From a virus (Duplodnaviria > Heunggongvirae > Uroviricota > Caudoviricetes): DNA of 37,205 bases. Under the pieces are notes generated by a model that saw nothing but the letters and a program-made list of their open reading frames with translations, searched no databases and was not told where the DNA came from. Position 1 is the stretch's first letter; the number at the start of each line of letters is the position of its first letter. The position numbers and the translations under genes are program-made. Below are positions 8,685 through 22,926 of this stretch, one piece after another. The stretch lies in IMG/VR virus record IMGVR_UViG_2721755652_000006. One strand, 5' to 3'.

Positions 8685-9147
8685 TCCTCAGCGTAAAGCC
8701 TTCCTCGATATGTTGGCGTGGTCAGAAGGAACGGATAACGGGCGACAACCGACACGTAACCACGGTTATGATGTTATTGTTGGCGGCGAACTGTTTACTG
8801 ATTACTCCGATCACCCTCGCAAACTTGTCACGCTACACCCCAAACTCAAATCAACAGCCGCCGGACGTTATCAGCTTCTTTCACGCTGGTGGGATGCTTA
8901 CCGTAAACAGCTTGGTTTGAAAGACTTCTCCCCCAAAAGCCAGGACGCAGTGGCATTGCAGCAGATTAAAGAGCGTGGTGCTTTACCTATGATTGATCGC
9001 GGTGATATCCGTCAGGCAATCGACCGTTGCAGTAATATCTGGGCTTCACTGCCGGGCGCTGGTTATGGTCAGTTCGAGCATAAGGCTGACAGCCTGATTG
9101 CAAAATTCAAAGAAGCTGGCGGAACGGTCAGAGAGAGTGAGGTATGA
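8671..9147 (+). CDS. R: Endolysin R (lambda-type lytic transglycosylase)
   Basis: 158-aa product matches lambda R over almost its whole length as recalled (…[20 protein letters not shown]…[22 protein letters not shown]…). Confidence 0.95.
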
Positions 9148-9605
9148 GCAGAATAACCGCGATTATCTCCGCTCTGCTCATCTGCATCATCGTCTGCCTG
9201 TCATGGGCTGTTAATCATTACCGTGATAACGCCATTACCTACAAAGCCCAGCGCGACAAAAATGCCAGAGAACTGAAGCTGGCGAACGTGGCAATTACTG
9301 ACATGCAGATGCGTCAGCGTGATGTTGCTGCGCTCGATGCAAAATACACGAAGGAGTTAGCTGATGCGAAAGCTGAAAATGATGCTCTGCATGATGATGT
9401 TGCCGCTGGTCGTCGTCGGTTGCACATCAAAGCAGTCTGTCAGTCAGTGCGTGAAGCCACCACCGCCTCCGGCGTGGATAATGCAGCCTCCCCCCGACTG
9501 GCAGACACCGCTGAACGGGATTATTTCACCCTCAGAGAGAGGCTGATCACTATGCAAAAACAACTGGAAGGAACCCAGAAGTATATTAATGAGCAGTGCA
9601 GATAG
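9144..9605 (+). CDS. Rz: Spanin inner-membrane subunit Rz
   Basis: 153-aa product matches lambda Rz as recalled ([39 protein letters not shown]…). Confidence 0.93.
9364..9546 (+). CDS. Rz1: Spanin outer-membrane lipoprotein subunit Rz1, embedded in Rz in the +1 frame
   Basis: 60-aa product [46 protein letters not shown]… with lipobox LVVVGC and a proline-rich region; lies entirely inside Rz. Confidence 0.9.
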
Positions 9606-9636
9606 AGCTGCCCATATCGATGGGCAGCTCATGCAA

Positions 9637-9930
9637 TTATTGTGAGCAATACACACGCGCTTCCAGCGGAGTATAAATGCCTAAAGTAATAAAACCGAGC
9701 AATCCATTTACGAATGTTTGCTGGGTTTCTGTTTTAACAACATTTTCTGCGCCGCCACAAATTTTAGCTGCATCGACAGTTTTCTTCTGCCCAATTCCAG
9801 AGACGAAGAAATGGTGGGTGATGGTTTCCTTTGGTGTTACTGCTGCCGGTTTGTTTTGAACAGTAAACGTCTGTTGGGCACATCCTGTAATAAGCAGGGC
9901 CAGCGCAGTAGCGAGTAGCATTTTTTTCAT
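9637..9930 (-). CDS. bor: Bor lipoprotein (serum-resistance lysogenic conversion protein)
   Basis: 97-aa product MKKMLLATALALLITGCAQQTFTVQNKPAAV… matches lambda Bor; lipobox LITGC. Confidence 0.93.
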   Translation of the reverse strand: MKKMLLATALALLITGCAQQTFTVQNKPAAVTPKETITHHFFVSGIGQKKTVDAAKICGGAENVVKTETQQTFVNGLLGFITLGIYTPLEARVYCSQ

Positions 9931-10221
9931 GGTGTTATTCCCGATGCTTTTTAAAGTTCGCAGAATCGTATGTGTAGAAAATTAAACAAACCCTAAACAA
10001 TGAGTTGAAATCTCATATTGTTAATATTTATTAATGTATGTCAGATGCGAAGGATCGTCACTGTATTCCCGGATTAACTATGTCCGCAGCCCTGACAGGG
10101 AAACTCCTCTGCGGGAGTGTCCGGGAATAATTAATAACGATGCACACAGGGTTTAGCGCGTACACGTATTGCATTATGCCAACGCCCCGGTGCTGACACG
10201 GAAGAAACCGGACGTGATGAT

Positions 10222-10632
10222 TTAGCGTGGAAAGATTTGTGTAGTGTTCTGAATGCTCTCAGTAAATAGTAATGAATTATCAAAGGCATAGTAATATCTT
10301 TTATGTTCGTGGATATTTGTAACCCATCGGAAAACTCCTGCTTTAGCAAGATTTTCCCTGTATTGCTGAAATGTGATTTCTCTTGATTTCAACCTATCAT
10401 AGGACGTTTCTATAAGATGCGTATTTCTTGAGAATTTAACATTCACAACCTTTTTAAGTCCTTTTATTAACACAGTGTTATCGTTTTCTAACACAATGTG
10501 AATATTATCTGTGGCTAGATAGTAAATATAATGTGAGACATTGTGACGTTTTAGTTCAGAATAAAACAATTCACAGTTTAAATCTTTTCGCACTTGATCG
10601 AATATTTCTTTAAAAATGGCAACCTGAGCCAT
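10222..10632 (-). CDS. ybcV: YbcV-like hypothetical protein (moron)
   Basis: 136-aa product from [32 protein letters not shown]…; the ORF track shows an in-frame 41-codon upstream extension to 10755; AT-rich. Confidence 0.7.
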
Positions 10633-10917
10633 TGGTAAAACCTTCCATGTGATACGAGGGCGCGTAGTTTGCATTATCGTTTTTATCGTTTCAATCTGGT
10701 CTGACCTCTTTGTGTTTTGTTGATGATTTATGTCAAATATTAGGAATGTTTTCAATTAATAGTATTGGTTGCGTAACAAAGTGCGGTCCTGCTGGCATTC
10801 TGGAGGGAAATACAACCGACAGATGTATGTAAGGCCAACGTGCTCAAATCTTCATACAGAAAGATTTGAAGTAATATTTTAACCGCTAGATGAAGAGCAA
10901 GCGCATGGAGCGACAAA

Positions 10918-11124
10918 ATGAATAAAGAACAATCTGCTGATGATCCCTCCGTGGATCTGATTCGTGTAAAAAATATGCTTAATAGCACCATTTCTATGAG
11001 TTACCCTGATGTTGTAATTGCATGTATAGAACATAAGGTGTCTCTGGAAGCATTCAGGGCAATTGAGGCAGCGTTGGTGAAGCACGATAATAATATGAAG
11101 GATTATTCCCTGGTGGTTGACTGA
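10918..11124 (+). CDS. ybcW: YbcW-like small hypothetical protein (68 aa)
   Basis: ATG-initiated 68-aa ORF, divergent from ybcV; AT-rich; function unknown. Confidence 0.6.
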
Positions 11125-11288
11125 TCACCATAACTGCTAATCATTCAAACTACTTAACCTGTGACAGAGCCAACACGCAGTCTGTCACTGTCAGGAAAGT
11201 GGTAAAACTGCAACTCAATTACTGCAATGCCCTCGTAATTAAGTGAATTTACAATATCGTCCTGTTCGGAGGGAAGAACGCGGGATGT

Positions 11289-11483
11289 TCATTCTTCATC
11301 ACTTTTAATTGATGTATATGCTCTCTTTTCTGACGTTAGCCTCCGACGGCAGGCTTCAATGACCCAGGCTGAGAAATTTCCGGACCCTTTTTGATCAAGA
11401 GCGATGTTAATTTGTTCAATCATTTGGTTAGGAAAGCGGATGTTGCGGGTTGTTGTTCTGCGGGTTCTGTTCTTCGTTGACAT
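11289..11483 (-). CDS. ylcI: YlcI-like small protein with a ribbon-helix-helix-like signature
   Basis: 64-aa ORF; the segment RNIRFPNQMIEQINIALDQKGSGNFSAWVIEACRRRL fits a beta-strand, helix, G-x-S turn, helix RHH pattern. Confidence 0.55.
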   Translation of the reverse strand: MSTKNRTRRTTTRNIRFPNQMIEQINIALDQKGSGNFSAWVIEACRRRLTSEKRAYTSIKSDEE

Positions 11484-11682
11484 GAGGTTGCCCCGTATTC
11501 AGTGTCGCTGATTTGTATTGTCTGAAGTTGTTTTTACGTTAAGTTGATGCGGATCAATTAATACGATACCTGCGTCATAATTGATTATTTGACGTGGTTT
11601 GATGGCGTAGATGCACGTTGTGACATGTAGATGATAATTATTATCATTTTGCGGGTCCTTTCCGGCGATCCGACAGGTTACG

Positions 11683-11694
11683 GGGCGGCGACCT
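11683..11694 (+). other. cosN cohesive-end sequence GGGCGGCGACCT (lambda-type cos); cosQ/cosB context spans roughly 11640-11870
   Basis: Exact 12-nt lambda cohesive end preceded by …CGACAGGTTACG and followed by the cosB-like region leading into nu1. Confidence 0.85.
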
Positions 11695-11871
11695 CGCGGT
11701 TTTTCACTATTTATGAAAATTTTCCGGTTTAAGGCGTTTCCGTTCTTCTTCGCCGTAACCTAATGTTTTTATTTAAAACACCCCCTGAAAAGAAAGGAAA
11801 CGACAGGTGCTGAAAACGGGCTTTTTGGCCTCTGTCGTTTCCTTTCTCTGTTTTTGTCCGTGGAATGAACA

Positions 11872-12391
11872 ATGGAAGTCAACAAAAAGCAGCTGGCTGA
11901 CATTTTCGGCGCGAGTATCCGTACCATTCAGAACTGGCAGGAGCAGGGAATGCCCGTTCTGCGGGGTGGTGGCAAGGGTAATGAGGTACTTTATGACTCT
12001 GCCGCCGCCATAAAATGGTATGCCGAAAGGGATGCTGAAATTGAGAACGAAAAGCTGCGCCGGGAAGTTGAAGAACTGAGGCAGGACAGCGAGACAGATC
12101 TCCAGCCAGGGACTATTGAGTACGAACGCCATCGACTTACGCGTGCGCAGGCCGACGCACAGGAACTGAAGAATGCCAGAGACTCAGCTGAAGTGGTGGA
12201 AACCGCATTCTGTACTTTCGTGCTGTCGCGGATCGCAGGTGAAATTGCCAGTATTCTCGACGGGATCCCCCTGTCGGTGCAGCGGCGTTTTCCGGAACTG
12301 GAAAACCGACATGTTGATTTCCTGAAACGGGATATCATCAAAGCCATGAACAAAGCAGCCGCGCTGGATGAACTGATACCGGGGTTGCTGA

Positions 12392-12417
<26 letters not shown>
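11872..12417 (+). CDS. nu1: Terminase small subunit Nu1
   Basis: 181-aa product matches lambda Nu1 as recalled (MEVNKKQLADIFGASIRTIQNWQEQGMPVLRGGGKGNEVLYD…). Confidence 0.95.
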
Positions 12418-20520: not shown

Positions 20521-22926
20521 ATCGGGTAGCAGTGATGCATTACTGCATCACCGCCCCCTAAGAACCGTACGTGCCAGTTTCCCGGCATACGGCTCAAGCC
20601 TTTCTAAGCCCACTCTCATGAGCCGGTTTCACTACATGTATACCTTTCGCATGAACAAGTGTGTGACACATCGGATGCAGCATAATCAAATTGGAGAGGC
20701 AGTTGCTCCCTCCATCGACTCGCCGTATGATGTGATGAACCTGCCACTGGGAATCAGATGTAATCCTCTCATCACATATGGGGCATCGGCCCCGCTGCTC
20801 AAACCAGATTTGAATGAGCTTTTTCCGTCCTTGCAGTTTGTGCCGCATTTTGTCTGCACAACGCTCCTCAAAGTACATCTCCCATTGAGGATCGAACGGA
20901 TTAGCTGCAATTTTAATCGGTTTAAACCGGTTGATAGGCGTATCGATTGCTTTCCTCAGATTTGCATACTGAGGCTTACCGTTGGCAAGGAGTTCTCCGG
21001 TAGCCGTGGAGAAAGACCAGTTTCGGGCACCTTGTTGATGGAAATATCTTTTCCGAATCCACTTCTTTCCCTTATTGGGATGACGCCGAACAGCCCAACG
21101 CCATAAAGCCAGCCAGATCTCATTGTCAACTTTGTTAAATGCGACCTTGGCCACAATGTGTTGATGGTAAGCCGCCCACCCTTTGATCATTGGGTTCAGC
21201 ATGCGGATCAACGTAAGCTGATCCATAGCTTTGTTGCCTTTGATTACAGCGCGTATTTTCTTTAAAAAGGAACTGACATTGGCTTTAGAGGGTTTGATCA
21301 GCATCTTACCGCCATATTTGCGAATGTTCTGTCCAAGAAAATCAAATCCTTCCTCGATATGTGTGATTTTCGTCTTTTCCGGAGAAAGCATTAATCCTCT
21401 TTCAGCCATAAACCGCCTGACGACGGGTAATACCTGAGACTCAAGAAGTTCTTTTGACTCTCCAGTGATAATAAAATCATCAGCATATCTCACATAGTTA
21501 ACTTTCGGGTTAACCAATCGTCCCTTGACTGTTCTCTTTTTAAACTCCGAAGCAAGAAGCGCCTCCAGTCCATCCAGAGCAATGTTAGCCAGTACAGGAG
21601 AAATTATTCCCCCCTGAGGAGTTCCTGAATTTACAGGGAATAACTGCCCCTTTTCCCTGTAACCCGCTTTAAGCCACTTTGTCAGGATTTGTCTGTCTGT
21701 TGAGGTGTTATCGATTAGCCATTGATGAGATATATTGTCAAAGCATCCCCGTATATCCCCCTCAAGCACCCATTCAGCGGATGTTTTCTGCGCAAGAACA
21801 CAGAAGCACTGTGCTATCGCATCTGCAGTAGACCTTCCAGTCCGAAAGCCGAAGGATCTCTGGTCAGCAGTGACTTCAGCAACGGGCTCAAGAGCCAGCA
21901 AATACAACGCCTGCATCGCCCGATCCTTCATAGTGGGTATCCCAAGGGGACGAGACTTCCCATTTGACTTAGGTATATAAACCCGCTTAAGTGGCTGTGG
22001 TTTGTAACCACGCCGTTTCAGCAGGTTAATAGCAAGAAATTTAACCTCCGGGGAAGACCATGTCTGACCATCAACCCCAGGAGTACGTTTCCCGCTATTC
22101 TCTGTAACTCGTCTGACAGCAACTGCTCTGCCACTAAACGAGTGAGTCAGTATCCATTGCAAGGATTTGACCTTGCCATGTTTACCTTCTCGTGTTGCCT
22201 TTACGATACGCGCTTGCAGTCTCCGCACTTCCCGATAGCACTGACGCCAGTTGATACTGTGCCAGGAGTCACCGTTAAGTAAGGACGCACCTTTACAGGT
22301 TGTAGCCTGCTCAGTCATCTGCTTTTCCTTTCTGGAAGATTACTCAAACTCTCTCGTAATGAAAGACCCAGTGGAAGTCTGCCCGCTTTCGCGTAGGGTA
22401 ATGTTGCCGGGCTCAACCCTTATCCGGTCCATTACAGACTGGCATTCGCTTTTTCCACCTTCTTTTACCCGCACCGCCAACAGTATCCCTTGCGGTTAAC
22501 CTGCCTCACGAGGCAGCGATACGGGCTTACCATGTTCCACCTGAATAACAACAGTAGGTTAGACTCTGCTCACAACACCGGTGGTTTATTGTCCGTGTAC
22601 CCCTAGCAAACAGAGGAGTAACCAACCACATACCTTTTGGTTCAAGCCTGTCAGCATCTTTGGCTTGTTCTGGTTAACGACGCTTCAGCAGTTCACATAT
22701 GTTAGTCATGCTACCGAGCCTAGACCTCCTCCGCCTGATGCTGGCAGATTACATGTAACCTCACGGTTTCATGCGATCCGAAGATCCGGTTTCATTGTCC
22801 TGACAGCTTCACACCCCACCGTTACCAGTGACGCATGTGTCAGTAGGCTACTGATGACGGAACATCAGGTTCCCTGACGGAATCGAACTCCGCTGGAACA
22901 ATTATTCAGGCGACTTCATGTCGCAC
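20521..22926 (-). mobile_element. Group II intron (about 2406 bp) with intron-encoded protein, oriented antisense to U
   Basis: On the minus strand the element begins 5'-GTGCGACATGAAG (plus 22926 downward) and ends …CTACCCGAT-3' (plus 20521); domain V-like GAGCCGTATGCCGGGAAACTGGCACGTACGGTTC at plus 20562-20595; the stop of the RT ORF overlaps the domain V start. Confidence 0.85.
20594..22318 (-). CDS. Group II intron-encoded protein: reverse transcriptase / maturase / HNH endonuclease
   Basis: 574 aa; RT motifs including YADD (VRYADDFIITG), a maturase X region, and a C-terminal Cys/His-rich HNH-like segment (CPICDERITSDSQWQVHHIIRRVDGGSNCLSNLIMLHPMCHTLVH). Confidence 0.88.
   Translation of the reverse strand: MTEQATTCKGASLLNGDSWHSINWRQCYREVRRLQARIVKATREGKHGKVKSLQWILTHSFSGRAVAVRRVTENSGKRTPGVDGQTWSSPEVKFLAINLLKRRGYKPQPLKRVYIPKSNGKSRPLGIPTMKDRAMQALYLLALEPVAEVTADQRSFGFRTGRSTADAIAQCFCVLAQKTSAEWVLEGDIRGCFDNISHQWLIDNTSTDRQILTKWLKAGYREKGQLFPVNSGTPQGGIISPVLANIALDGLEALLASEFKKRTVKGRLVNPKVNYVRYADDFIITGESKELLESQVLPVVRRFMAERGLMLSPEKTKITHIEEGFDFLGQNIRKYGGKMLIKPSKANVSSFLKKIRAVIKGNKAMDQLTLIRMLNPMIKGWAAYHQHIVAKVAFNKVDNEIWLALWRWAVRRHPNKGKKWIRKRYFHQQGARNWSFSTATGELLANGKPQYANLRKAIDTPINRFKPIKIAANPFDPQWEMYFEERCADKMRHKLQGRKKLIQIWFEQRGRCPICDERITSDSQWQVHHIIRRVDGGSNCLSNLIMLHPMCHTLVHAKGIHVVKPAHESGLRKA

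Follow-up and report, generated by a model that had tools for sequence, protein, structure and literature searches.

Three AT-rich accessory genes, ybcV, ybcW and ylcI, between the lysis genes and cos of a lambda-like prophage

The 37,205-nucleotide (nt) stretch of viral DNA analysed here (IMG/VR record IMGVR_UViG_2721755652_000006, Caudoviricetes), referred to as the window, carries three small open reading frames (ORFs), ybcV, ybcW and ylcI, at positions 10,222 to 11,483. Their coordinates and those of the neighbouring features are as follows:

10222-10755, minus strand: maximal ORF of ybcV, 177 amino acids (aa) from a TTG start
10222..10632, minus strand: ybcV as annotated by RefSeq, 136 aa (411 nt), DUF1398 protein
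10918..11124, plus strand: ybcW, 68 aa, acidic product, equivalent to lambdap79 of phage lambda
11289..11483, minus strand: ylcI, 64 aa, YlcI/YnfO family (DUF3950)
8367-8684, 8671-9147 and 9144-9605: holin, endolysin and Rz, the lysis genes to the left of the region
9637..9930, minus strand: bor, the left neighbour (PF06291, E=1e-30; phrog_260), sharing the strand of ybcV and ylcI
11683..11696, plus strand: cosN GGGCGGCGACCTCG, a single exact match, the left cohesive end of lambda-type DNA
11872-12417: Nu1, to the right of cosN

The anatomy described for this DNA in an earlier note is confirmed: the three ORFs agree exactly with the ORF list, are arranged on alternating strands (-/+/-), lie between Rz and bor on the left and cosN and Nu1 on the right, and bear the names that RefSeq uses in an Escherichia coli O157:H7 prophage in which the 1262-nt stretch is 100% identical. 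The AT-richness is likewise evident, the stretch having a G+C (GC) content of 38.1% versus 52.0% for the whole window, which places it among the lowest ~5% of 1262-nt windows; ybcV alone has 32.1%, and the lysis and terminase genes have 50-54%. All three ORFs match known families, i.e. PF07166 (ybcV, E=3.4e-46), phrog_657 (ybcW, E=7.5e-48) and PF13132 (ylcI, E=5.4e-20), and ratios of nonsynonymous to synonymous substitution rates (dN/dS) against diverged alleles were 0.22-0.24, 0.43-0.85 and 0.09-0.34, respectively, next to 0.16-0.28 for bor and 0.05-0.13 for Nu1. On account of these family matches and dN/dS values, ybcV, ybcW and ylcI are real genes, each under purifying selection.

That the three genes occupy a place where lambda has almost nothing, as previously assumed, is false. 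Window positions 9600-11900 are collinear with lambda 46422-48502 at 97.6-97.8% nt identity, the linear lambda record ending one base before cosN. NC_001416 annotates lambdap78 (47042-47575, -), lambdap79 (47738-47944, +) and bor, a lipoprotein moron expressed in the lysogen; the third ORF of 64 aa (ylcI) is present in lambda but unannotated in NC_001416, and is annotated in PV340536 and in phage O276 (gp43, 'YlcI/YnfO family protein'). The right end of lambda resembles the window in strands and in spacing to bor, cosN and Nu1, its YbcW and YlcI proteins are 100% and 98% identical to those of the window, respectively, and it differs by about 2% point differences only. Matches to the stretch were found in 4086 out of 5426 complete E. 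coli genomes, 1359 of which hold at least 80% of it, at up to 13 places per genome. Given this identity with lambda and this prevalence in E. coli, the region is, judged by sequence comparison, lambda's own right-end accessory region (lambda 47,042-48,303), extremely common and carried here in a lambdoid prophage.

The same families (DUF1398, YbcW and YlcI/YnfO) recur in E. coli K-12 as ybcV-ybcW-ylcI of the prophage DLP12 and as ydfO-ynfO of the prophage Qin, where they likewise follow the lysis genes and precede the Nu1-like nohD/nohA gene. Unlike the window, Qin lacks ybcW, its ynfO and ydfO form a tight same-strand pair 57 bp apart, and its YnfO differs from YlcI in having another, longer C-terminal tail (77 aa).

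Homology to the window at 93% or above stops at 11268-11274 in 47 out of 85 loci, i.e. 15-21 bp past the ylcI stop codon, and at 11723 or 11727 in 16 of the 85, i.e. ~30 bp beyond cosN. These recurrent breakpoints therefore define a mosaic module:

11272..11725: recurrent mosaic module of ~455 bp, comprising ylcI, its upstream region, cosQ and cosN

Between bor and this ylcI-cos module lies an optional insert, the ~1-kb segment with ybcV and ybcW. Among 80 viral loci with YlcI at least 95% identical, ybcV and ybcW occur together in ~38, are both absent in ~32 (with bor adjoining ylcI in 25 of these) and in ~10 only a ybcW-like gene (78-81% identity) is present; the two genes are usually gained or lost jointly as a cassette. 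Other combinations are found in E. coli prophages, one of which (L168) has a DUF1398 gene and a ybcW-like gene, no ylcI and a small terminase of the DUF1441 type, and another a ybcW-like gene and ylcI without DUF1398. In Shiga toxin (Stx)-converting phages, homology is limited to ylcI codons 1-47 (11343-11483), and there 42 bp separate ylcI from a divergent HNH-TerS-TerL packaging module. The constant element is ylcI, which in the loci surveyed immediately precedes the packaging genes and runs antisense to late transcription, with a lambda-type Nu1, a Nu1 relative only 37-53% identical or the HNH/TerS module as neighbour. The 'cluster' of the earlier note is therefore one of position only, since the genes assort independently in the 80 viral loci and in the E. 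coli prophages.

The moron-like character of the genes is supported, as two features of morons sensu Juhala/Hendrix are present, i.e. a differing base composition (38.1% versus 50-54% GC) and presence or absence with sharp junctions among closely related phages. The lambda morons bor and lom share with the region the deviant composition, the orientation against late transcription and the presence/absence pattern among relatives; they code, however, for outer-membrane virulence factors, whereas the products here are soluble and ybcW lies on the late strand.

Based on the observed lambda identity, family membership, purifying selection, assortment and breakpoints, the preferred and, in our judgement, probable interpretation is that ybcV, ybcW and ylcI are separately exchanged accessory genes of lambda's right end and not one system.

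The ybcV gene corresponds to lambdap78 and is a paralogue of Qin ydfO. Its match to PF07166 (156.6 bits, cut-off 22; profile positions 1-119 out of 119) begins at residue 49 of the 177-aa ORF, the alignment with the nuclear magnetic resonance structure of YdfO (2HH8; 80% identity, E=4.5e-71) starts from residue 40, and a GGAAGG Shine-Dalgarno-like motif is located 8 nt ahead of the ATG at 10632. Because of these domain and alignment starts, the motif and the 411-nt RefSeq annotation, a product of 136 aa (10222-10632) is likely. The AlphaFold2 (AF2) model of YbcV is poor (predicted local distance difference test, pLDDT, 54), 2HH8 is its sole significant structural match by Foldseek (E=1.1e-11), and model and search together gave no functional lead. 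DUF1398 proteins go under the name 'head protein' in phrog_413 and in RefSeq phage records, and under 'putative envelope protein' in older records of lambda; neither label is backed by family match, solved structure, gene position or strand. A CRISPR interference (CRISPRi) screen scored bor and lambdap78 as non-essential (PMC10695390), and over-expression of ybcV from an ASKA clone left the cells viable, and a glycogen phenotype was scored for it (PMC2853380). The listing of ydfO as 'essential' by transposon-directed insertion-site sequencing indicates no function and is suspected to reflect poor transposon or read coverage of this AT-rich paralogous region.

Three sequence elements may bear on the transcription of the region:

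10694..10710: PdhR box sequence ATCTGGTCTGACCTCTT, matched exactly and only once in the window, with 0 matches expected by chance, in the divergent ybcV-ybcW control region
11161..11188: inverted repeat GTGACAGA/TCTGTCAC with 12 nt between the arms, between the convergent stops of ybcW and ylcI
11553..11585: inverted repeat ATCAATTAATACG/CGTCATAATTGAT, 70-100 bp upstream of the ylcI start, essentially identical in lambda

A PdhR box of identical sequence has been reported between ybcV and ybcW in DLP12, and mRNA levels of both genes were ~10-fold lower in a pdhR mutant of K-12 (PMC7660256). The ybcV gene would accordingly have its own control region, which may be metabolically responsive, as the one carrying the PdhR box in DLP12 appears to be; as it would be transcribed against the late direction, ybcV would behave as a prophage-state moron like bor. 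The inverted repeat at 11161-11188 is a candidate bidirectional transcript end; in K-12, ybcW and ylcI are convergent and their transcripts overlap (PMC12288877). The repeat at 11553-11585 is a candidate operator or promoter element only and is no evidence of function, because this AT-rich DNA has many inverted repeats of such size (15 pairs in 1.7 kb).

Further structure was noted in the flanks. For the minus strand at 10050-10175, in the gap from the ybcV stop to the bor start, folding predicts a strongly structured RNA (minimum free energy -43.9 kcal/mol vs -30.6 +/- 3.4 for shuffles, z=-3.9), with an inverted repeat of two perfectly matching 10-nt arms (10064-10073 / 10120-10129) and a hairpin that resembles a terminator (10165-10140); this RNA has no Rfam match and may represent the ybcV transcript end and/or the bor leader. 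A perfect palindrome, ATGATAAT-T-ATTATCAT, is located at 11631-11647, 36 bp left of cosN; its lambda version is imperfect (GATGATAATCATTATCAC). The palindrome overlaps a plus-strand sequence that resembles a sigma-70 promoter. Rfam searches returned nothing credible in 9500-12000, and the arrays of Osterhout 2007 hold no information on these ORFs.

The YbcW protein is 100% identical in aa sequence to lambdap79, the lone nt difference being synonymous (AGG vs AGA). Its gene is the sole ORF of the region on the late-transcript strand and has a GGAG motif 7 nt ahead of its ATG. Apart from phrog_657, no Pfam or NCBIfam family was matched in profile scans. The gene was found in 40 out of 50,697 phage records, always with at least 79% identity, and all of these are Escherichia lambdoid phages, with the exception of one contaminated record. 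Comparison of alleles revealed a variable N-terminus of ~22 residues and a nearly invariant stretch of residues 23-68. According to a preprint of September 2026, all 7 of 7 lambda-vir escapers from the Vulcan NADase defence had lost lambdap79 via recombination with Qin, and co-expression of lambdap79 with Vulcan was toxic, identifying lambdap79 as activator of Vulcan (bioRxiv 10.64898/2026.09.04.749371). The arrangement of Qin, i.e. ydfO-ynfO without ybcW, explains this deletion route. The sole published role of a gene of this region runs opposite to the anti-phage function hinted at earlier, as it is a defence of the host that senses lambdap79, the equivalent of ybcW (bioRxiv 10.64898/2026.09.04.749371).

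From its location on the late-transcript strand we infer that ybcW would be made during lytic growth; it is dispensable for plaque formation, its product being a protein whose presence activates abortive infection by the Vulcan NADase, and may itself act on a host target. In the CRISPRi screen lambdap79 was scored 'essential', contrary to the literature cited in the same study, according to which bor, lambdap78 and lambdap79 are non-essential (PMC10695390). Since ybcW alone lies on the late-transcript strand, this score would be attributable to CRISPRi polarity on the late transcript; polarity on downstream genes was documented by the authors for the nin region (PMC10695390).

Whether YbcW is rather the functionally important gene product of the region, i.e. 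a lytic-phase host-takeover or counter-defence protein that is detected by Vulcan, was considered as an alternative, which we regard as possible but doubtful. Triggers of defence systems are often phage proteins acting on host processes, and YbcW is sensed by such a system; the late-transcript strand and the good ribosome-binding site, as well as the small, acidic nature of the protein with its invariant C-terminal core and variable N-terminus, would also be in accord with a takeover function. Against this, YbcW has no family match in the Pfam and NCBIfam scans, is confined to the 40 phage records, is dispensable and absent from many close relatives, and with its dN/dS of 0.43-0.85 displays the weakest constraint of the three genes.

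YlcI scores above the curated cut-offs of both PF13132 (71.4 bits, cut-off 25) and NF041551 (36.6 bits, cut-off 30). Its family is small: a search of 1.84 billion proteins yielded 141 representatives at E<=0.001, and many of these are copies of lambda riddled with errors. The conserved core reads K-N-I-R-F-P...L-I-E-x-I...N-F-S-A-W-V-x-[ED]-A-C, in which I15, R16, F37 and V41 are invariant, and the N-terminal arm is basic. The earlier suggestion of a ribbon-helix-helix (RHH)-like signature is plausible in fold and stands without a significant sequence or profile match. Structure prediction, the check then proposed, gave an AF2 model (pLDDT 69) with an extended N-terminus, a helix at 19-32, a four-residue loop and a second helix at 37-63; the N-terminal strand that precedes the two helices in RHH proteins did not form. 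Foldseek against the PDB gave no significant match (best E=0.75), yet about four fifths of the top 50 PDB matches are RHH proteins, judged by their descriptions, including NikR, MazE, HicB, MatP, YiiF, CopA_SO, Arc, ParD, VapB, NikA and CopG. By hhalign, T-T-R-N-I-R-F-P of YlcI is placed on P-Q-F-N-L-R-W-P of Arc in the expected register (P=0.013, 23 columns), pairing R16 and N14 of YlcI with R13 and N11 of Arc; the comparison with Mnt gave P=0.16. In the Arc-operator structure, R13 and N11 of Arc contact bases. No Pfam match of YlcI to an RHH family was obtained, one out of 22 relatives reaching RHH_6 at E=0.092, and a profile of YlcI relatives searched against PDB sequences found no RHH protein, only chance matches to short prokaryotic Argonautes.

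With Arc and Mnt of phage P22, CopG, MetJ, ParD and the N-domain of NikR, YlcI shares small size and a basic N-terminal arm, and NLRWP of the Arc strand and NIRFP of YlcI both alternate between polar and hydrophobic residues and end in proline, followed by helix-loop-helix. It differs from these repressors in that its predicted helix 2 (37-63) is much longer and in that neither sequence nor profile comparison linked it significantly to an RHH family or to a solved RHH chain. On the evidence of model and alignment, which is consistent though statistically non-significant, YlcI is likely an RHH DNA-binding protein. It would be a small dimer, the basic arm and N-I-R-F-P strand of which read the major groove as in Arc, and would most probably serve as transcriptional repressor or autoregulator sited at the junction of lysis and packaging genes.

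Several points weigh against the interpretation as separately exchanged and separately expressed genes with a DNA-binding YlcI. The YlcI model is a monomer of pLDDT 69 in which residues 1-18 are coil and the predicted strand is unformed, and no operator was identified. Promoter-like sites are not above chance (6 vs 6.3 expected in a promoter scan), so that the separate transcription units are deduced from strand, the DLP12 literature and the analogy to bor; terminator-like sites are more numerous than expected (7 vs 2.0), none of them cleanly placed after each gene. The expression data stem from DLP12 in K-12, a different prophage, and reads given to DLP12 ybcV/ybcW in BL21(DE3) could derive from the near-identical copies of lambda DE3. 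Finally, as ybcV and ybcW usually travel together, some functional link between these two is possible.

As main alternative for YlcI, a packaging accessory acting at or near cos (in terminase access, in cos cleavage or termination, or in the exclusion of other cos phages) in place of a transcription regulator has to be weighed; we consider it rather unlikely. Its attraction lies in the position of ylcI, which is found ~389 bp from the start of a Nu1-type terS in every locus with the flank present, even where Nu1 is 37-53% identical, moves with cosQ/cosN as a module, is absent from the prophage with the DUF1441-type small terminase and in Stx phages again abuts the packaging module. In addition, 2 out of 22 diverse YlcI members (P0316 and P0376) carry a C-terminal Terminase_2-like, i.e. 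small-terminase-like, helix-turn-helix (HTH; E=1.6e-11). As known from cosmids and in vitro packaging, however, cos, terminase and integration host factor suffice for lambda, the interval from Rz to cos being dispensable. Stx phages share the coding core of ylcI without the cos-proximal DNA, YlcI does not co-vary with Nu1, and bor, lambdap78 and lambdap79 are non-essential in the literature cited by PMC10695390.

A distant clade of ylcI, which is restricted to Enterobacterales (e.g. Xenorhabdus, Serratia, Pectobacterium, Klebsiella, Enterobacter, Proteus, Morganella and Tatumella), also argues against a function at cos. Its members include genes in satellite-like islands of fixed arrangement that are antisense between a primase and 116-aa gene on one side and Bro/Ant, AlpA and integrase on the other:

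L166, 4714-5103: YlcI-like gene in a satellite-like island
L085, 2968-3183: YlcI-like gene in a satellite-like island
L172-L203, around 4001-4180: YlcI-like genes in satellite-like islands

This position is that of a regulator, and no lambda-type cosN was found beside these satellite homologues. A conserved linkage of ylcI and cos in distant relatives was rejected on this ground and because the Stx phages share the coding core only. A 2026 survey reported YlcI/YnfO proteins in capsid-forming phage-inducible chromosomal islands (cf-PICIs) of Enterobacter (PMC13612085). In such satellites (cf-PICIs and P4-like islands) the DUF3950 core is 33-60% identical within the clade and about 31-47% identical to YlcI; as with ylcI, the gene is small and antisense to its neighbours, but it lies by int/alpA(/bro)-primase and away from cos, and some of the proteins carry the additional TerS-like HTH, unlike YlcI. 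Considering that ylcI precedes cos/terminase across three packaging-module types of lambdoid phages, it may also be envisaged that YlcI is a conserved 'gatekeeper' of the packaging module, i.e. a prophage-expressed RHH protein binding DNA at the junction of lysis and packaging genes and controlling transcription into the terminase operon or access of terminase to cos, the domain of which was co-opted by satellites; this more far-reaching proposal is quite unlikely. If true, satellites would use the YlcI domain, sometimes fused to the TerS-type HTH, to interfere with or redirect helper packaging.

The suggestion of the earlier note that at least one of the three genes has an anti-phage or superinfection-exclusion function in the prophage is very unlikely in view of the available evidence. 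The region is a known moron hot spot beside bor and AT-rich, ybcV and ylcI have the orientation of bor, which is expressed in the lysogen, and all three genes are subject to purifying selection and found in very many E. coli prophages, all of which would suit such a function. Yet that no known defence system can be assigned, as the same note stated, was confirmed by the PADLOC-DB 2.0 search, in which nothing was significant for any protein (best E-values 0.07 for Csx23 and 0.017 for Mem_04, both unrelated models, and none for YlcI or Bor), and Pfam/NCBIfam scans detected no enzymatic, NTPase, nuclease or membrane domain. The exclusion phenotypes of lambda map to rexAB and sieB, and the lone experimental link to immunity is the reverse, lambdap79 being the trigger of Vulcan.

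Highly improbable, finally, and rejected on co-occurrence because each gene is found without the others, is a remnant type II toxin-antitoxin (addiction) pair of YlcI as RHH antitoxin and YbcV as DUF1398 toxin, split by insertion of ybcW: Qin has ynfO and ydfO in the classic antitoxin-toxin order (same strand, 57 bp apart, RHH gene first), database gene calls with both PF07166 and PF13132 exist (P0281, P0391), and RHH is a common antitoxin fold, with many of the Foldseek matches of YlcI being antitoxins, but most of these 'fusions' stem from short contigs prone to errors, L168 has DUF1398 and no ylcI, ylcI is present without DUF1398 in about 40 of the 80 close viral loci, ylcI and ybcV are 656 bp apart in the window with the opposite-strand ybcW between them (the tight pair being restricted to the Qin arrangement), the ASKA ybcV over-expression clone is viable (PMC2853380), and no PADLOC or toxin-antitoxin model was matched. 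The antitoxin-like role earlier considered for ylcI is disfavoured on the same grounds.

Homologue searches with the three proteins returned thousands of near-identical sequences on ~3.5-kb contigs of the European Nucleotide Archive, most likely Oxford Nanopore lambda control DNA with read errors, and deep alignments were therefore not obtained. Matches in Staphylococcus aureus, Dovyalis caffra, a Campylobacter phage, Streptomyces and Cohnella, on ~3.5-kb or ~48-kb contigs, look like contamination with lambda control DNA (the Nanopore 3.6-kb strand and whole lambda); such contamination inflates the apparent host range of the three families.

Elsewhere in the window, a group II intron (20521-22869, -) is inserted antisense among the head and tail genes of the prophage. 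Its ORF (20594-22318) codes for a protein with RVT_N, RVT_1, GIIM and HNH domains, and Rfam gives matches to group-II-D1D4-7 (22723-22869, 133 bits) and Intron_gpII domain V/VI (20521-20597, 66 bits); PADLOC 'RT' matches are due to this intron maturase. A large serine recombinase of 508 aa (3939-5465, +) with Resolvase, Recombinase and Zn_ribbon_recom domains is located in the early/nin region, where the window is richest in A+T (35% GC around 4261), and has no PADLOC match.

Overall, the finding is already known, inasmuch as the genes belong to lambda, are widespread and have been annotated, and the role of ybcW as trigger of Vulcan is published; as lambda itself and some three quarters of the complete E. 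coli genomes have them, they matter little for discovery. The analysis is useful in correcting the false premise that lambda has nothing at this place, and makes modest additions in the mosaic anatomy, i.e. the association of ylcI with cosQ/cosN and the ybcV + ybcW cassette, and in fold-level support for an RHH protein. To our knowledge, ybcV and ylcI belong to the few lambda ORFs to which no function has yet been assigned, and the clear hypothesis of RHH-type DNA binding makes ylcI cheaply testable. Sensitivity to Vulcan is to be expected of this prophage, which encodes the reported trigger in unchanged form.

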